The translations under genes were made by a program, and so were the position numbers. DNA of 64,000 nucleotides, from positions 1 to 64,000 of IMG/VR virus record IMGVR_UViG_3300014204_000130. One strand, written 5' to 3'. Each line of letters opens with the position of its first letter. Position 1 is the first letter of the stretch. The stretch is from a virus. Taxonomy: Duplodnaviria; Caudoviricetes. The notes beneath the pieces are model-generated. The model was not told the DNA's origin and made no database searches. It was given only the letters and a program-made list of their open reading frames with translations. Of the stretch, positions 39,700 through 58,328 are shown piece after piece.

Positions 39700-39728
39700 T
39701 TGACAAAGTGCTAGTAAAGTGCTATTAT
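39700..39728 (+). promoter_or_regulatory. sigma70 promoter with tandem AAGTGCTA boxes
   Basis: TTGACA-N17-TATTAT. Confidence 0.7.
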
Positions 39729-46806: not shown

Positions 46807-47546
46807 TATTTTTTGACAGTCTTTTAAAAGACGGAATTTCCCAGTAGGACCGTAAACTGTGAATTTGGAATTCCGTCTTTTGTTGGACAGAATTTTGAAA
46901 GTTGAGAATTTAACATGTCACTTTGTCCAAGATGTAAAGTAAATGAGAAACAAATATTTAAGACAGGTAAAGTCGGTGCATATTGTAGAGAATGCCAGAA
47001 ACATTACCATGATAGGTATTATTATGGTGAAGGTGGTAAACCTGTGAAGATTCCGAAACCCCCGAAACTTCCAAGAATCCCGAAAACAATTTGTCCAAGA
47101 TGTAAAGTAAATGAGAAACATAAATTTCCAAATTGCATGGCTGCTTATTGTTTGGTATGCGTCCGAGAAGTGGATAAGGAAACACATAAACGAAGAATGT
47201 TGGAAGATCCCGTCGAGATAAAACGAAAACATCACTTGGCCGTTCAAAGATATCAGAGGAAGACAGATCCTGAAAGATTTCGTCGATATAGAAAGATGGG
47301 TATGAAGGAAATAGACACTTCATTGACATTGGCATTCGTAATGGATTGGTTTAATGGTGAATGTCAGGAATGCTTTAATATCTGTGAATTCGGAGGAGAG
47401 TATAAACCAACAATTGATTATATAGTTCCGTTGAAGTCTGGAGGACAACATGTGAAGGAAAACGTAAGGCTGTTGTGTAGAAGTTGTATGCAAATAAAAT
47501 GGAGAAATTCTATTTCATAATATTTTTGGACAGTCTTTTAAAAGAC
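46804..47546. repeat. 29-bp direct repeats (46804-46832, 47518-47546) flanking HNH-like gene
   Basis: TAATATTTTT(T/G)GACAGTCTTTTAAAAGAC, one mismatch. Confidence 0.85.
46915..47520 (+). CDS. Zn-finger HNH-fold protein, catalytically degenerate
   Basis: Two CPRCKVNEK repeats; CQEC...IDYIVPLKSGG.H..ENVRLLCRSCMQIK. Confidence 0.75.
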   Translation: MSLCPRCKVNEKQIFKTGKVGAYCRECQKHYHDRYYYGEGGKPVKIPKPPKLPRIPKTICPRCKVNEKHKFPNCMAAYCLVCVREVDKETHKRRMLEDPVEIKRKHHLAVQRYQRKTDPERFRRYRKMGMKEIDTSLTLAFVMDWFNGECQECFNICEFGGEYKPTIDYIVPLKSGGQHVKENVRLLCRSCMQIKWRNSIS

Positions 47547-47550
47547 ACCT

Positions 47551-47587
47551 ACCCCTCTTGTCTGTATGGAAAGAGGGGTTTCTTTTT
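47551..47587 (+). terminator. Rho-independent terminator ending the middle arm
   Basis: ACCCCTCTT-N11-AAGAGGGGT then TTCTTTTT. Confidence 0.75.
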
Positions 47588-48301
47588 GTCCAACGTTGGA
47601 ATTTGAGAGCCGAAGGCTTCCTGTTGAGATGGGGTTGTCTAAGATTGGACAGTTATAAATTCGTTGCTTGTCTAAGATTGGACTCCTGTTGAGATGGGTA
47701 GAGAATTGGGAGGAAAAAGAATGGGTTACGGATGATATGGAAAAGTTGGTTATGCATCCATATACCACATGAAGTACTGCCGTACCCTCCGCATTTTCCG
47801 GAAATGCTCGCATTATTTTATTCCACCGTACAACCCGCATCAACACACGTTCTCCACAGTCGTACATATAGCACCGTACTAGCTGTACCGTACTCTCATA
47901 CCTTGCAAACGCTGATCAATACTCATTTTCCACGAATCAATGATATGCACGCCGAAAGTACAAGTCGATATGGTTGGTGCATTATGCACGGCAATGAAAA
48001 GTGGAAAACTCGTAGGAATGGCTTAAAATGGAAAAAGGTAGAATTGCCTGGGAATGGTCGGAAAAAACTTGTCCAGCAAAAGACTGGGAAAAACTGATAC
48101 TCCTGAGTATCAAAATTTTAAAATGCGGTTTTGTAACCAGTCCGTGAAATATTGCAGTCTTTTAAAAGATTTTTCGGAATGGCCATTCCTATTGTATTGG
48201 CGATTCAAAAATTCTCTCCTCTTCTCCATGGGGAAGTATAGAGTAGGGGGAAGGGTAAGATTCTATATTGAAAAAATAGTTATCGAGAATGAAGAAAACA
48301 T

Positions 48302-48330
48302 TTGACAAGTGCTAGCACTCGGAGTAACGT
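48302..48330 (+). promoter_or_regulatory. sigma70 promoter with palindromic operator AGTGCTAGCACT
   Basis: TTGACA-N17-TAACGT. Confidence 0.65.
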
Positions 48331-48336
48331 ATTTCT

Positions 48337-48848
48337 TGTAAGTGCATTTTAAAACTTACTCCCTTCTTGGAAGGGGATTGCCCAAAAATTTGAAAAGTGA
48401 ATCGGCAAGAGTAGACGAAAGGCCAAAAATCTCTCCCCCGCCGGAAACGGCGAAAAACCTAGCTTCAGGGGAGGTAAAGTTTATCAGGATACAACGCCTT
48501 AGCATCCGTCTACTATCCAAAACGTGATTAAAGTGTCACGTGTCGGAACGGCGCAAGGATACGGCGATATCTCGAAAGTCTCCCGAAGTAGAAAATCAGA
48601 GATGAGTAGAATACCGTAAGCGTATTAAATGGCAAGAGGTAAGATACCCGGCCACCCGCAAGGGTAAAAGTGAACCGATATACAAGTGATATCACGGGCA
48701 ATGGTATAACCTACCCTCTCCCCCTACTCTCTCGTGAGAATGTCGGAAGGACGAAAGTATACCAAAGTGAATGCGGATAGCTAGAAAAATGCGTGTTGTA
48801 GTAAGCTTGGTAACTGTTTTTCGTCATGCGATACCCTTACCGATTCAC
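48337..48848 (+). ncRNA. Large structured non-coding RNA candidate, family not recognised
   Basis: Promoter directly upstream, no credible ORF, closing stem 48397-48405/48840-48848, many nested stems, GNRA hairpins, possible pseudoknots. Confidence 0.65.
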
Positions 48849-48857
48849 AACGTTCTT

Positions 48858-49224
48858 TGAAAAGTGCATCGGGAAAACCCCTTTCTACTCAGTAGTAAAA
48901 ATCATTCCCGTTTCAGGGAATGATAAATTAATTTAAAAGGAGTCAATATGAAAAACAATATCATTCTCCCTGAAATTTTCGGCAAGCTTACTTCCGACAA
49001 CGCCGTGGTTCAGAATACCAATGAGGCATACAAGCGCGGTATTGCCATGCAAAAAGCAGTAAAGGAAGCTGAAAAAACGGTAAAGTTGGCTAGCGATTCC
49101 TTTCAAGCCGAACTCATTGCGCGTGCTTCTGACTTACACGTGGTCATTCTGACCATGAAAGCATCTACCATTACCAAGTAAGCACTTGTGACCTGACTTC
49201 CGGTTTTTCCCGATGCACTTTTCA
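48858..49224. repeat. Perfect 20-bp inverted repeat (48858-48877/49205-49224) enclosing a small gene
   Basis: TGAAAAGTGCATCGGGAAAA / TTTTCCCGATGCACTTTTCA. Confidence 0.9.
48948..49181 (+). CDS. Small helical hypothetical protein (77 aa)
   Basis: AAAAGGAG RBS. Confidence 0.75.
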   Translation: MKNNIILPEIFGKLTSDNAVVQNTNEAYKRGIAMQKAVKEAEKTVKLASDSFQAELIARASDLHVVILTMKASTITK

Positions 49225-49375
49225 TCCCGGCTCATGTTGCTTGTATGCGTTCGGCTTACTGGTTCTTCAGTTTGCGCGTGCTGCATGTTTTCATGAGCCG
49301 GTTGTCCTGTTCTCTTCTGTTTCTCGTATCGGATTTTTTTCCGGACAACATTTTTTCCGAAAGGAGATTGCCAAA

Positions 49376-49774
49376 ATGAATACACTTGTAGAATTGAAAA
49401 AATCAATTCAGGCTTGCAAGGAAGTTATCTCACTTTGCAAGTCGAGTAATGGGGAATATTGTCTCTTGGCAATCTCTCCGAGAAAAACGGGATTTGCCCG
49501 GAGTATGTTTTTCCGGGCGATTCAAAACAATGTCCGTTCCATTCTACCCAAAGGGGTATATGGAACATTCATGGAAGATGGGGAACATGTTACGGTGGAA
49601 GTATCGCCGGAACATGTTCCTTGTCTGGTAGAAAGAATGGAAAAGAAATACATTGTTTCCATTCTGTCTGATTCAAGGATTGACGAGAGACAATCCTTAT
49701 CACCACGTGAAACACAGTGCAAGAAAACAAGACGAGTTACCGCTTGCACTTCCTCTACTCGGACAAATAAGTAG
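49376..49774 (+). CDS. Hypothetical protein
   Basis: AAAGGAG RBS; start MNTLVELKK. Confidence 0.65.
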   Translation: MNTLVELKKSIQACKEVISLCKSSNGEYCLLAISPRKTGFARSMFFRAIQNNVRSILPKGVYGTFMEDGEHVTVEVSPEHVPCLVERMEKKYIVSILSDSRIDERQSLSPRETQCKKTRRVTACTSSTRTNK

Positions 49775-49831
49775 GGAGAAATTCCCTACCATGTTTTCCC
49801 GGTTTAAAAATTCATTCTCAAAATAGGTTTT

Positions 49832-49927
49832 TGTATCTTTTCCAGATCTTTGGAGGGATACAAAAACCTTGTTGTCGTTCCCGGAATAATCTGTATCTTT
49901 TCCAGATCTTTGGAGGGATACAAAAAC
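49832..49927. repeat. Two identical 36-nt hairpin repeats with a 24-nt spacer (CRISPR-like mini-array)
   Basis: TGTATCTTTTCCAGATCTTTGGAGGGATACAAAAAC at 49832-49867 and 49892-49927; repeat is certain, CRISPR identity is not. Confidence 0.8.
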
Positions 49928-50126
49928 ATTGCATTTTGCAATGTCCACCAAAAGATGCACAACGGTTTATCATTTCCGTTGTCATCTTGCATCTTTCTTC
50001 AGTTAAAAATGATAAAGATCATTTGCAGGCCGTTTCAACGACGGTGACTGCAACGGCTTCAATGCCGTGAAATGATATGTATCCGGTTCGTTTCAGAACT
50101 GGAAAATTCGTAAAGGAGGTGTCATC

Positions 50127-51530
50127 ATGACATCTCAAAACAACGTCGCCAACTTAATCGGAAGTCTTCCGGCTTCCGTAAAAAATATTGCGACCGCCGT
50201 TTCGAAAGTCGGCGGTCGATCGTTTCTGATCGGGGGAGCCGTTCGCGACTTCTTCCGGAACGGCTCCGACCCTAAAGATTTCGACCTTGAAATCCATGGG
50301 TTGCAACTGGAAACCCTGAAAGGGGTTCTCGACGGTCTTGGAATGGAAACCAAGACCGTCGGAGAATCCTTCGGGGTTCTCAAGGTTCGCGACGAGGAAG
50401 GGAACGACCTTGACATCTCCCTTCCTCGTCGAGACAACAAATGTGGCGTCGGCCACAAGGGGTTCACCGTCGAAGTGGACCCCAACATGACTATTCGGGA
50501 AGCTTGTTCCCGTAGGGATTTCACCATCAACACAATGATGGTGGATATCCTCACAGGGTCTATCGAAGACCCATTCGGAGGATTGGAAGACCTCCAAAAG
50601 GGAATCCTTCACCATACCTCGGAGCAATTCTCCGAAGACCCATTACGGGTTCTCCGGGGAATGCAATTCCTTTCCCGGATGGGATTCCGGGCTTCCCAGG
50701 AATTGGAGGAAACCTGTTCAAAATTGGTTTCCTCCTTCTCCGAACTTCCCAAGGAAAGAGTTTGGGAAGAGTGGAAGAAGTGGGCTGCAAAAGCCCAATC
50801 TCCTTCGAAGGGATTGGAATTTCTCCGGAATTCCGGATGGGTTTCCAACTTTCCGGAGTTGGAGGCACTCATCGATCTCAAACAAGAACCCTCCCATCAT
50901 CCCGAAGGGGATGTGTGGGAACACACGCTGCATACGGTCGATGCAGCGTGTAAGATTGCCGGGAGGGAAAATCTCCCGAGTGACCGGAAAGTTGCCCTTA
51001 TGTTAGGGGCACTTTGCCACGATTTCGGTAAGGTAACAACCACCGAAGTTATCGATGGGGTTATCACATCCAGGAAACACAACGTAGCCGGGGAAGAACC
51101 AACCCGGTCATTCATGGCGCGGATAGGTGCGCCAAAAGACCTCACCGAAGAGGTCGTCCATCTGGTCCGTGAACATATGATTCACGTCTTCGGTGAACTG
51201 ACGGACAGCGTTGTTAAAAAGCTGTCCTCCCGGATCAACGGGAAAACCACCGTAATAATGGTTTCACATGTGATCGAGGCTGATCACGGTGGCCGACCTC
51301 CATTCGCCGCCGTTCATCCTTGTCCCCAAATCCTGGAAATGGCAGCGAGATTGAATGTTCTCGCCGCACAACCGAAACCTTTCCTGACCGGACGACATCT
51401 CATCTCGCTCGGGTTCAAACCCGGTCAGGAAATGGGAAAGGTTCTCAAGGAGCTTTTCGACCTTCAACTGGAGGGAAAGATTGCCTCGGAGGAGGAGGCA
51501 ATCACATTCGCGAAAACAACTCGGGATTAA
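50127..51530 (+). CDS. cca: CCA tRNA nucleotidyltransferase/poly(A) polymerase family with HD domain
   Basis: GGAVRD, DFDLE, RRDFTINTM, EDPLRVLR, ERVWEE; HD: HHPEGDVWEHT, LCHDFGK. Confidence 0.92.
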   Translation: MTSQNNVANLIGSLPASVKNIATAVSKVGGRSFLIGGAVRDFFRNGSDPKDFDLEIHGLQLETLKGVLDGLGMETKTVGESFGVLKVRDEEGNDLDISLPRRDNKCGVGHKGFTVEVDPNMTIREACSRRDFTINTMMVDILTGSIEDPFGGLEDLQKGILHHTSEQFSEDPLRVLRGMQFLSRMGFRASQELEETCSKLVSSFSELPKERVWEEWKKWAAKAQSPSKGLEFLRNSGWVSNFPELEALIDLKQEPSHHPEGDVWEHTLHTVDAACKIAGRENLPSDRKVALMLGALCHDFGKVTTTEVIDGVITSRKHNVAGEEPTRSFMARIGAPKDLTEEVVHLVREHMIHVFGELTDSVVKKLSSRINGKTTVIMVSHVIEADHGGRPPFAAVHPCPQILEMAARLNVLAAQPKPFLTGRHLISLGFKPGQEMGKVLKELFDLQLEGKIASEEEAITFAKTTRD

Positions 51531-54899: not shown

Positions 54900-56039
54900 A
54901 TGAGCATTCAACAAAAGTTTTCTGACAATGTGAAACAACATCGCGGTATTCTCAAACATCTTCTCATCGAACGGGAAGAGATCATAGACGCATTACATAT
55001 CGCACTTCTTTCCCGAAAGAACGTATATCTCATCGGTCCCGGTGGTGAAGGCAAAACAAAAATTGCAAAAGACTTTTCCAAGTTGTGTTCCATGAAATTC
55101 TTTGATCAGCAATTCCATTCATTCACGAAGGTGGACGATTGGGAAGGAATCGTTGATCTTAATGAATTCAAACAAGGAAGACTCATTCGTAAAGTTGCCA
55201 ATTTCGCTCCCGGTGCGGATATCCTTCTTGCCGATGAAATTGGACGTGGTGGAGCTGTCCTATCTTGCATGTATCGATTGCTTAATGAAGGCACTTACAT
55301 GGAAGATGGAGTAATGAAACAAGCTCCAGTTGAATTGGTATTCGCCGGTTCCAATTCCATGTTACCGACTGAGCATGATGCACTGTTCGATAGGTTTCCA
55401 TTCTTCTTCGAATGCAAAAAGGTTTCCAATGAAAACTTATTGGAAATCTTGATGGATGATGATAAAGAAGTCATCCTTCCAGAGAATGAAAAGATTACAA
55501 AGGTAATGGTGCATGAAGCACGATTGGAAATGTTGAAGGTAAAACTTTCAAAAGACATTGCAATGATGATTGTGGATATCAATGCAAAATTGGAAGAAGA
55601 AGGTATCCACATCTCCACTCGACTCAATCGTTGGAGTCGAACCATCCTCCAGTCTTCTGCATATTGCGAAGGAAGACAAGAAGTAATCGATGAAGATGTA
55701 TGGGTTCTTCGCAACGTATACGCCAGAACACTCAAACAGAAACCCATTGTCGCAAAGATATTGAGATCGATATGCAATCAGGAACTCGACTTGATGTTGC
55801 TCACCTTCGACCAGTTGGATGCGTATTTCAACAAATGGGAACAGAATGCATGTCCTAGAATGTTGGATGGTGGTGATTGCGCAGAGAGCGCGAAGGAATT
55901 GCTGAAGGCGATTGAATCGGTAAAGCCGAAGGATATCAACAAGGCAGAACATTCAAGGCTTGTCCTGCAAGGGAAGGCCAAGGTTGCCGCGATCTCCGCA
56001 TCGGCATTGGCGAAACGTCGGCAGGGCGTGAAGGAATAG
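54900..56039 (+). CDS. MoxR/RavA-family AAA+ ATPase
   Basis: GPGGEGKT, LLADEI, LLNE, GSN, ALFDRF. Confidence 0.9.
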   Translation: MSIQQKFSDNVKQHRGILKHLLIEREEIIDALHIALLSRKNVYLIGPGGEGKTKIAKDFSKLCSMKFFDQQFHSFTKVDDWEGIVDLNEFKQGRLIRKVANFAPGADILLADEIGRGGAVLSCMYRLLNEGTYMEDGVMKQAPVELVFAGSNSMLPTEHDALFDRFPFFFECKKVSNENLLEILMDDDKEVILPENEKITKVMVHEARLEMLKVKLSKDIAMMIVDINAKLEEEGIHISTRLNRWSRTILQSSAYCEGRQEVIDEDVWVLRNVYARTLKQKPIVAKILRSICNQELDLMLLTFDQLDAYFNKWEQNACPRMLDGGDCAESAKELLKAIESVKPKDINKAEHSRLVLQGKAKVAAISASALAKRRQGVKE

Positions 56040-56137
56040 CCACTCGCGCCGCCAGACAAAGGGGAACACACATCGGGAACCCGGCGTCCAATATTGGACG
56101 CCAAATTAACATCCCTTAAATGGGAAGGAGTATTACC

Positions 56138-57082
56138 ATGAAGAAACTCAATCCAGTTGAACGGCCTAACCGAACCGTATTCTCTGCAACCAACAAGGCC
56201 GGGAAGTCCTTTGATATCATCGCATATCAAATCGTATTCGGGTTCTCAATCAAGTCGCTCGACATGCAAGTCCTTCACGATGAATGGACGCGGCTTGGAT
56301 TTGATCCCAAATATATGGGAAAAGTTACGAAGGATGGTGTAATCAAACGCGCCATTGCCGAAACTGTACAGGATCTCCGGAATTCCAATTACACATACAA
56401 AAAGATTGGAGATGAGAATTCCGATGTTGTTGTCTACAAAATCTTCAAGATGGAGTGTGAATCCATCAATGGAAAACTTGATGGTGAGATGAAACCATAT
56501 GCTCACATCACATATCGAAAACAATCGGAGATGATTGAAATCGATAATCCAGAAATCGAATCCATGTTGAATACACATTACAAATTCTTCACCTTGAACT
56601 ACATGAATCTCGATTACACACGTTATACCAAGACCATGATTGAACGGGAATCTGTATGTCTTTCACTTCGGCCTCAAGGTGGCGTCTACATTGTCCCGGC
56701 GAAGGACAAAGACATGGTTTACAAACTCAAAGAATTGTTCAATCGGGTTGATCCTGATGGTGACTTTCATATCACCGAAATTCCAGATCTCGATGGTGCC
56801 AAGGAGTCCATTGCATCGGCATATCAACCGGTGATGCAAGACATGTGTGCAAAACTGGAAGAGAAGATCACGGAATTGGAATCCAAGGGAAAGCAACTTT
56901 CGTCCAAGAAGCGGCAAGAGTTGTTCGACGAGGTTTGTTTCCTTGGAAAAGATATCGAACTCATGATGGACGTGTCCGAATACGATTTATCCAGCGGTAA
57001 GGATATGTTGATCAAGGTGAACGAACATATCATGAACTTTACTCCAATTGCAAAGGATGAAACTGAAAACAAGGAGGACTAA
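56138..57082 (+). CDS. Conserved protein between MoxR and vWA genes (DUF6744-like)
   Basis: LRPQGGVYIVP motif; context. Confidence 0.6.
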   Translation: MKKLNPVERPNRTVFSATNKAGKSFDIIAYQIVFGFSIKSLDMQVLHDEWTRLGFDPKYMGKVTKDGVIKRAIAETVQDLRNSNYTYKKIGDENSDVVVYKIFKMECESINGKLDGEMKPYAHITYRKQSEMIEIDNPEIESMLNTHYKFFTLNYMNLDYTRYTKTMIERESVCLSLRPQGGVYIVPAKDKDMVYKLKELFNRVDPDGDFHITEIPDLDGAKESIASAYQPVMQDMCAKLEEKITELESKGKQLSSKKRQELFDEVCFLGKDIELMMDVSEYDLSSGKDMLIKVNEHIMNFTPIAKDETENKED

Positions 57083-57083
57083 C

Positions 57084-58328
57084 ATGTCCATCGTCGAAAA
57101 GAATCCATACGCTGACTTTAAGTATGGGCAGTGTGTCCGTAATGATCGTCCATTCCAAGACAAGATCATGTGGGAGGAGAAATATGATAAAGGTTTCTCC
57201 GAAGACTGCAATGATCTGTTCCAAAGTTTGTATCAGAAAGACGTGAAATTTAATGGAGAAGGAAGAATTAAAACTCTTCTGGATTCCATTAAAGACAGCA
57301 ACGACTTCAAGCAATTGAAGGAACGCACAAAAGGGAATCATGTCCTTGCATATATCGCCATGAAGGACATGATTCCCCAACTGCAACAGATTGCAAAGGA
57401 ACTTCCGAAGGACAACAAACCGCAAGACCAAAAGTCCAAGGATCGTATCCGACAGGGTATGCGGCTTGCAGTTCAAGAAGCCGCAGATACCGTAGAGGAA
57501 GCCGAGGGTATGATCGATGTTCTCGGTATCGGTAAAGAGGGTGGAATTACTACCGATGAAGACGTTGGATCTGCAATTGAATCAGCCAATCGTTTCGCCA
57601 ACGATGAAGTGTTCAAAAGAATCATGGAAATGGCGGGACGGTTCGAACGTCAGGCAGATAGCCAGATTAAAACCAATTGCAGTCACGGACTGGACGAATT
57701 GGTAGGAATCGATAGTTCAGACGACATCGCAAATGTTCTCCCGGAAGAATTGGCCGATGACGATCTATTCAATTTGAACTTTGTCGAATCCAAGTTGCAA
57801 GTGAATAAGTTCCGGGGTAAAGAACCCAAAGAGAAAGGAGCCAAGATTGTTTGTATTGATCGATCCGGAAGTATGGATGGATGGAGATATGAATTCTCCA
57901 GTGCAATCTTGTTTGCAATGTATCTGGTTGCCAAACAAGATGAACTTCCAATGTTCGTGAATCTCTTCGATGTAAATGTTATCTCTCGTGAAATCAAATC
58001 CACGAAGGATATCATGTGGATCATGGGGAAATATATGGGTGGTGGAACCGACTTCAATCTTCCACTCACCCGGTCATTCGAACAAATAGAATCCAATCCC
58101 GAATTCGAGAAAGCCGATATCGTATTCATCACAGATGGATTCGATACACTTTCCGAAGATGTTATGAACAAAATTCAATCAACGAAGAAACGAATTTCAT
58201 TGAAGATCATTTCATTGTTGATTGGACGTGGAAGCACAGAAACATTGAAAGGATTCTCCGACAAAGTATTCCAATGTTGGAACGAAGCAAGCAGTAAAGA
58301 ATTTTGCGAGGAGGTATTCACGGTATGA
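57084..58328 (+). CDS. vWA-domain protein (ViaA/CoxE-like)
   Basis: CIDRSGSM, GGGTDF, ADIVFITDG; AGGAGG RBS. Confidence 0.9.
   Translation: MSIVEKNPYADFKYGQCVRNDRPFQDKIMWEEKYDKGFSEDCNDLFQSLYQKDVKFNGEGRIKTLLDSIKDSNDFKQLKERTKGNHVLAYIAMKDMIPQLQQIAKELPKDNKPQDQKSKDRIRQGMRLAVQEAADTVEEAEGMIDVLGIGKEGGITTDEDVGSAIESANRFANDEVFKRIMEMAGRFERQADSQIKTNCSHGLDELVGIDSSDDIANVLPEELADDDLFNLNFVESKLQVNKFRGKEPKEKGAKIVCIDRSGSMDGWRYEFSSAILFAMYLVAKQDELPMFVNLFDVNVISREIKSTKDIMWIMGKYMGGGTDFNLPLTRSFEQIESNPEFEKADIVFITDGFDTLSEDVMNKIQSTKKRISLKIISLLIGRGSTETLKGFSDKVFQCWNEASSKEFCEEVFTV

Follow-up and report, generated by a model that had tools for sequence, protein, structure and literature searches.

The analysed window covers the initial 64 kb of a 108,145-nt IMG/VR virus record of an uncultured phage, the identical sequence of which was assembled from a landfill sample and was also found in a groundwater run. 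Structural genes (terminase, portal and major head protein) occupy the minus strand up to 32.6 kb, and no close relative of the phage is present in the collections searched, relatives of the capsid protein exhibiting at most 36% identity. The stretch of interest (48337-48848), public copies of which are identical to the window, is located on the 3' side of an HNH gene and upstream of ORF77, ORF132 and cca (Table 1). As plus-strand genes already start at 32.8 kb, the stretch does not represent the head of the early region, as had been claimed in a first-pass annotation of the sequence; its position upstream of an RNA-repair enzyme was confirmed, with a CCA-adding enzyme containing an HD domain being encoded downstream.

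Table 1. Features at and around the stretch (positions in the window)
Feature	Position	Strand	Remarks
GTCTTTT/GAC-type hairpins	46020, 46477, 46826-46888, 47534, 48157, 51602
HNH gene	46915-47520
Intrinsic terminator	47551-47588	+	3' of the HNH gene; 9-bp G+C-rich stem and U run
S0, 5' arm	48240-48257	+	Upstream of the promoter; 12+6 bp, one bulge, all pairs standard
Predicted promoter	48302-48330	+	TTGACA (48302-48307), 17 nt, TAACGT
Putative untranslated leader	48337-48947	+	About 610 nt; A-rich; G+C 0.44-0.49 (flanks 0.36)
AAAGTG boxes, mostly AAAGTGAA	48394, 48530, 48667, 48764, 48861		Spacing 136, 137, 97 and 97
S1/rod, 5' strand	48397-48423	+	9+3+3+10 bp, predicted to pair with 48816-48848
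Rod pairs	48397-405/48840-848, 48414-423/48816-825, 48490-497/48793-800		Predicted
Rod pairs (inner)	48513-518/48775-780, 48604-609/48724-729		Predicted
Hairpin with GAAA loop	48433-48473	+	6-bp C-rich/G-rich stem and 5-bp stem; probability 0.96-0.99 in four contexts
7-bp hairpin	48522-48541	+	Probability 0.94-0.99 in all contexts
4-bp hairpin with GCAA loop	48654-48665	+
S0, 3' arm	48712-48730	+	Holds the second CTCTCCCCC
S1/rod, 3' strand	48816-48848	+
boxA-like dodecamer GTTCTTTGAAAA	48852-48863	+	Extends into the start of the S2 5' arm
S2, 5' arm	48858-48877	+	Predicted to pair with 49205-49224
GUUUCA-loop hairpin	48901-48924	+	9 bp, followed by AAAUU and the ORF77 Shine-Dalgarno sequence
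ORF77	48948-49181	+	Orphan small protein; strong ribosome site
S2, 3' arm	49205-49224	+
Island of extreme local folding	49225-51530	+	Covers ORF132, an array of intergenic hairpins and all of the cca ORF
ORF132	49376-49774	+	Shine-Dalgarno sequence inside a 12-bp helix
40-nt direct repeats	49825-49931	+	Upstream of cca; two copies with 98% identity and a period of 60, both forming a 13-bp hairpin
GUUUCA-loop hairpin	50082-50103	+	8 bp, followed by AAAUU and the cca Shine-Dalgarno sequence
cca	50127-51530	+	Class II CCA-adding tRNA nucleotidyltransferase, HD domain

The terminator behind the HNH gene, the area of which (47550-47699) exhibits a local folding z of -4.6, is expected to stop upstream transcription, so that the unit below would require a promoter of its own. 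The ~700 nt beyond this terminator contain a single doubtful ORF ('ORF121', 47732-48097, 121 aa), which is without a ribosome site, has an odd translation, was left uncalled in the public records and yielded no candidate in a homologue search, while substitutions across it in a 95% identical relative are without third-position bias. 'ORF121' is probably spurious by these sequence features, and the gene-poor stretch may consequently span 47521-48947. The folding of the spacer between the terminator and the stretch (47590-48336) equals that of shuffled sequences (z ~0; 0.05 and 0.14). A small palindromic hairpin (GTCTTTT, 4 nt, GAC-type) was observed to recur at the edges of genes, among others on either side of the HNH gene.

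The first-pass annotation had described about 600 nt without a credible ORF directly after TTGACA-N17-TAACGT, and this was borne out: the promoter sequence is present, no frame in 48331-48947 exceeds 61 aa, and the gene callers of the two public records called nothing there. The ORFs flanking the stretch each possess their own stop codon and ribosome site. No trace of a decayed protein was detected when six-frame pieces were compared with PHROGs (E≥0.04) or by tblastn (E≥5), and a decayed gene was rejected on these grounds. Between the stretch and ORF77, no plus-strand terminator was found.

Comparison with Rfam by cmscan returned no match at gathering thresholds for the whole window or for the remainder of the phage record, and 48000-49300 yielded only chance snoRNA-type matches at E≤10 with lax filters. 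The stretch is thus without a known RNA family, in agreement with the earlier reading that it lacks hallmarks of RNase P and tmRNA (no covariance-model match and no ARAGORN detection) or of group I/II introns (no Rfam intron match); ARAGORN and Rfam likewise revealed no tRNA within it. The proposed membership of a GOLLD- or ROOL-like class was not upheld, as both covariance models were without a match even when E≤10 was allowed, and a literature search retrieved no description of such an RNA. In the remainder of the genome, ARAGORN called an odd tRNA-like gene with a four-base anticodon (genome 80538-80633, minus strand), which is the sole tRNA-like element of this phage with its own CCA-adding enzyme.

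To place the stretch among related sequences, several collections were searched. No homologue of the leader was found by blastn against GenBank phages and PLSDB plasmids. Exact-pattern scans gave no match in IMG/VR and one chance match without further similarity in JGI metagenomes (L038), and stop-free frames of at least 48 aa, searched as pseudo-proteins by scanning six degenerate 24-nt patterns at once, matched nothing in IMG/VR or GTDB genomes; as these searches other than blastn relied on exact patterns or words, diverged relatives would escape them. Contigs carrying relatives of the CCA enzyme (L003 and L035-L037) hold nothing similar upstream. One of these, L036, is a phage contig of 213 kb on which 1.76 kb of gene-free G/T-rich repeats (340-2104) lie upstream of the related CCA-enzyme gene; these repeats are unrelated in sequence to the present leader.

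Two partial relatives were identified in sequencing runs. A wastewater relative (run X8, labelled RNA-Seq and flagged as probably DNA) matches 48651-48800 and 48811-48884 apart from three differences over 224 nt (98-99% identity), and the one listed difference, A>G at 48843, changes a U-A pair of helix S1 to U-G and keeps the pair. Directly after 48884 its contig is unlike the window, the next 30 letters retaining the GUUUCA loop with a differing 5' half of the stem. The other relative (run X3) exhibits ~95% identity up to 48094 and then diverges. The borders at 48094 and 48884 imply that ~48095-48884 behaves as a sharp-edged module, which could reflect either constraint or recent exchange by recombination. 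The runs listed as containing the sequence include no RNA run.

The promoter at 48302 was compared with the other promoters of the phage. Its extended motif, TTGACA(A)AAGTGCTA, is common to two intergenic plus-strand promoters at 39700 and 43996, which have better -10 boxes and are followed by a ribosome site and gene within 12-45 nt. This match to gene-adjoining promoters supports a promoter at 48302, and the genes directly behind 39700 and 43996 make the 610-nt leader peculiar to the 48302 promoter. Its -10 hexamer is poor (3/6), and a generic promoter scan did not list it. The spacer carries a perfect 12-nt palindrome, AGTGCTAGCACT, which is unique in the record and is likely an operator. 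Two members of the promoter family were seen to contain a second GTGCTA-like copy 11 nt further along, and the third the palindrome. These elements suggest a shared regulator of the family and, since the 48302 promoter belongs to this three-member phage family, RNA is probably transcribed from the gene-free stretch.

Three long helices, designated S0, S1 (part of a longer rod) and S2, were predicted within and around the stretch. When folding was started at 48338, the Boltzmann ensemble placed a probability of 0.95-1.0 on a long interrupted rod, of which S1 (25 bp, with two mismatches and one bulge) was predicted at 0.98-1.0. The closing stem 48397/48840 of the first-pass annotation is therefore recovered with this start, although its 9 bp taken alone are at chance level. 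The other proposed stems fared less well: all nested stems are fully complementary at the positions given, yet most of them pair with a probability of ~0 from this start (48410/48507, 48702/48758, 48791/48825 and the GATATC pair at 0.00-0.02), and both suggested pseudoknots, likewise complementary, reach 0.00-0.02. The sequence CTCTCCCCC does occur twice in the stretch, as noted earlier, and nowhere else in the 108-kb record.

This predicted fold depends on the assumed 5' end. When upstream RNA from 48100 is included, the rod is lost (S1 probability 0.00) and the 48410/48507 domain appears, while folding of 48100-49260 gives the 18-bp helix S0, with a 12-bp perfect core, a probability of 0.98-0.99. 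S0 and S1 thus represent mutually exclusive global folds that are swapped wholesale, and only three small hairpins (48433-48473, 48522-48541 and 48654-48665) were robust across contexts.

Helix S2, with 20 perfect base pairs around ORF77 and its ribosome site, was predicted with a probability of 0.92, and no longer perfect inverted repeat within 700 nt exists in the record. Furthermore, the 5' arm of S1 is a 90% copy of the 5' arm of S2 (score 30, compared with a shuffle maximum of 24), so that the 3' arm of S2 can pair with either; 18 nt of it are pairable with the S1 5' arm (89%). Helix arms excepted, an internal duplication of the RNA was rejected. DNA inversion at the repeats was also discarded, as the record contains no resolvase or integrase family and three public assemblies display a single orientation.

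To assess whether this folding exceeds chance, the stretch was compared with dinucleotide shuffles and with the genome. The z-scores were -3.5 for the plus strand (564 nt), -3.9 for the minus strand and -4.5 for 48389-48856; these are moderately low compared with shuffles and lie within the genome background, as three of 28 arbitrary 468-nt genome windows reached z≤-4.6, one of them within a 2,526-aa ORF (two of the low windows, re-checked with 100 shuffles, gave -3.85 and -4.2). Local z in 150-nt windows ranged from +0.9 to -2.3 in the leader, compared with a genome mean of -0.8 (sd 1.5). Complementary 6-mers numbered 45 (27±6.6 in shuffles), the excess of complementary 6- and 7-mers placing the leader at the 33rd-38th percentile among genome windows, and at k=9 a single complementary pair was observed versus 0.33 in shuffles (p 0.24).

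Two GNRA hairpins with stems of at least 4 bp are indeed present on the plus strand of the leader and none on its minus strand, but this count is reached by 4.6% of genome windows. Local z, self-complementarity, GNRA hairpins and the AAAGUG cluster all place the leader only within the top 5-35% of the genome, and no plus-strand folding preference was detected, the minus strand folding equally well. Nothing indicated that the leader folds better than ordinary parts of the genome, and the large, ornately folded RNA that had been envisaged is not supported by the energy model, by this background-level stability or by a strand preference. The elements that are clearly beyond chance, namely S0, S2 and the duplicated arm, extend outside 48337-48848; in 48200-49260, ten complementary 12-mers were observed compared with 0.04 in shuffles.

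The leader also contains five AAAGTG boxes, which form the densest cluster of this hexamer in the record (p 0.004 versus shuffles); some hexamer occurs at least five times in 9% of genome windows. The four modules delimited by AAAGUG were rejected as separate folded units (z -1.6 to +0.8). Elsewhere in the genome, a divergent intergenic region (97342-97982) has a z of -6.6 and contains the same AAAGTG core as the promoters and the leader boxes, together with two copies, 330 nt apart, of a 27-nt palindromic element starting with AAAGTGTTC and two copies of a 17-nt repeat.

The genes downstream of the leader were also analysed. On sequence grounds, ORF132 and cca are real genes: the former has one homologue, P0126, which is encoded on a Logan contig of 18.9 kb and exhibits 47% identity over 119 aa, and the product of the latter contains PolyA_pol head and HD domains, with thousands of homologues at up to 53% identity. 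Compared with 5.8 billion proteins, ORF77 matched itself only; no relatives of ORF77 or ORF177 were found in IMG/VR, and the ESM Atlas was uninformative on ORF77 and ORF132. The G+C content of cca is 0.52, compared with 0.37 for the genome.

The Shine-Dalgarno sites of all three ORFs are inside predicted helices, that of ORF77 being predicted to pair with 49194-49200, and the start codon of cca lies inside a further 9-bp hairpin (50116-50136). In addition, the hairpins preceding ORF77 and cca have different stems with an identical GUUUCA loop and 3' flank, and are positioned 10-12 nt before the Shine-Dalgarno sequence; the chance expectation is ~0.05-0.1 per genome, as estimated from 217 hairpins with 6-nt loops. 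These GUUUCA hairpins are candidate translational operators or processing signals.

Extreme local folding over an extended region was found at a single place in the 108 kb, the island 49225-51530, for which a span-limited fold predicted ~45 consecutive hairpins with stems of up to 31 bp. Its first part (49225-49830) has a z of -9.6 on the plus strand and -7.9 on the minus strand. The cca gene exhibits a mean local MFE of -60 kcal/mol per 150 nt compared with -44 for synonymous shuffles (z -13 to -18), whereas the next most extreme of 74 ORFs reaches -6.4 and homologous cca genes of four other phages range from -0.2 to -2.2. A MoxR/VWA cluster (57048-58328 and 54900-57082), with z -5 to -9 versus synonymous shuffles, is second to cca in this respect. 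The plus strand of the island is 3-7% more stable than the minus strand, a difference too small to decide between RNA-level and DNA-level selection. Within the island, the 40-nt repeats upstream of cca, which have no Rfam match, are reminiscent in layout of the short tandem repeats that make up antitoxin RNAs in type III toxin-antitoxin systems, or of phage mimics of such RNAs. The operon as a whole, and above all its hyper-structured cca, is more unusual than the leader.

We tentatively favour the reading, with a probability of roughly 0.45, that 48337-48947 is a cis-acting untranslated leader of ~610 nt of the ORF77-ORF132-cca unit, which would be processed and translationally gated by long helices. 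Transcription would start at the operator-bearing promoter at 48302 and run through ORF77, ORF132 and cca; S1/rod and S2 may then act as double-stranded targets for an RNase III-type enzyme and may switch the exposure of downstream ribosome sites, and S0 would also form in read-through transcripts. Pairing is predicted at each of the unit's ribosome sites, and a GUUUCA-loop hairpin lies in front of two of the three. This reading is suggested by the ORF-free stretch, the promoter family, the upstream terminator and the absence of a terminator before ORF77, which makes a leader the simpler reading. It is further suggested by S2 and the duplicated arm, the mutually exclusive S0 and S1 folds, the paired Shine-Dalgarno sites and the GUUUCA hairpins, as well as by the conservation of 48651-48884 in the wastewater relative, the pair-keeping change and the z of ~0 in 47590-48336. 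Against it stand the background-level folding, the dependence of the fold on the 5' end, the poor -10 hexamer, the failure of the searches to find a homologue and the possible recombination border.

A stand-alone or excised trans-acting RNA of ~450 nt (48397-48848), cut at S1 in the way that rRNAs are released from their processing stalks and serving, as envisaged in the first-pass annotation, as a scaffold, decoy or ribozyme, appears unlikely. S1/rod would join its 5' and 3' ends with a probability of ~1.0, its region (48389-48856) has the z of -4.5, it is A-rich with a G+C content above that of the flanks, and its GNRA hairpins are confined to the plus strand; the missing Rfam match would make it new, and a relative that differs further downstream retains its 3' half at 98-99% identity. 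However, such an RNA would not be more stable than the genome background, its four segments and most of its sub-domains fold no better than shuffles, the minus strand folds as well, S1 alone is a chance-level repeat and no terminator of its own is present; several collections, searched with limited sensitivity, hold no homologues. Equally unlikely is a non-functional mosaic spacer of decayed genes or recombination joints, in which the structure would be due to chance and a genome-wide excess of self-complementarity: no structure statistic at 48337-48848 is more extreme than the top 5-35% of the genome, synteny with two relatives is lost at the borders 48094 and 48884, and the neighbouring 'ORF121' looks spurious. 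Conversely, it is rare for 600 nt of junk to be retained behind a promoter in a phage genome, S0, S2 and the duplicated arm are far beyond chance (ten 12-mers versus 0.04), the neighbouring sequence is unstructured (z 0, compared with -3.5 to -4.5 here) and no decayed protein left a trace.

Less probable again is a function at the DNA level, with the AAAGTG boxes, related to the AAGTGCTA operator, forming an array for a phage DNA-binding protein and the inverted repeats arising as a by-product of how the sites are oriented. The density of the five boxes (p 0.004) is consistent with such an array, as are the occurrence of their core both at three promoters and within a pair of palindromes at 97.4-97.8 kb, an inverted copy at 49210-49225, an operator-like copy at 49182-49188 and the equal folding of both strands; yet 9% of genome windows hold some hexamer at least five times, no candidate emerged for the binding protein, a spacing of 97 nt does not correspond to integral helical turns and, with no recombinase, the repeats are not inversion sites. 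More speculative than any of these, and improbable, is an 'armoured' RNA-repair operon comprising the 3.2-kb unit from 48302 to the end of cca, in which the duplicated-arm leader, ribosome sites locked in hairpins and in two cases placed behind GUUUCA-loop operators, and ~45 synonymous-site-selected hairpins in the coding sequences would allow a tRNA-repair mRNA to survive and be switched on under attack by a host abortive-infection RNase that degrades single-stranded RNA, and in which the S1-closed 450-nt piece could be released as a stable RNA of a new kind.

As a leader, the stretch may be compared with known systems. RNase III processing helices are found in rRNA operons, in the early mRNAs of phage T7 and in the lambda N leader. 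Here, too, distant arms bracket units (S1 a 450-nt RNA, S2 ORF77) in what would be a polycistronic early or middle transcript, and both S2 (20 bp) and S1/rod (25 bp) reach the ~20 bp or more of helices around such units; in contrast, cleavage is putative here, one bracketed unit is a small ORF, and the duplicated 5' arms provide alternative partners. The boxA-like dodecamer GTTCTTTGAAAA, which we take to resemble the rrn boxA of Bacillota and which has one other exact copy in the record (18452, minus strand), is followed by a conserved-loop hairpin (48901-48924) before the genes, an arrangement that may be compared with rrn antitermination leaders and with lambdoid nut sites, which combine a NusB/NusE-bound boxA with a boxB hairpin. 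It differs from nut sites in its spacing of ~37 nt with a helix arm in between, in a GUUUCA loop rather than a GNRA-like pentaloop, and in that the second GUUUCA hairpin lacks a boxA; a literature search for a boxA with this sequence returned nothing usable.

The GUUUCA hairpins also recall translational operators and 5' stabiliser stem-loops known from Bacillus and phage mRNAs, as a stable hairpin with an A/U-rich 3' flank lies a short distance upstream of the ribosome site before two genes; to our knowledge, the GUUUCA loop matches no known operator. With ROOL and GOLLD, which are large ornate Rfam RNAs from phages and prophages, the stretch shares a length of several hundred nucleotides, a non-coding and phage-borne nature and proximity to a tRNA-related gene (here the CCA-adding enzyme), but it has no model match, no conserved family and no exceptional folding, and would belong to an mRNA leader instead of forming a gene of its own.

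If the leader reading is true, the stretch would be a regulatory leader that is unusual in its length but otherwise fairly ordinary for an uncultured phage, and its value is modest, as no family stands behind it. The cca gene and the preceding 900 nt contain far more RNA (or single-strand DNA) structure than is found elsewhere in the genome, and we know of no description of such synonymous-site selection in a gene of a double-stranded DNA phage. The structured cca could bear on the expression of counter-defence genes during RNase-based abortive infection.
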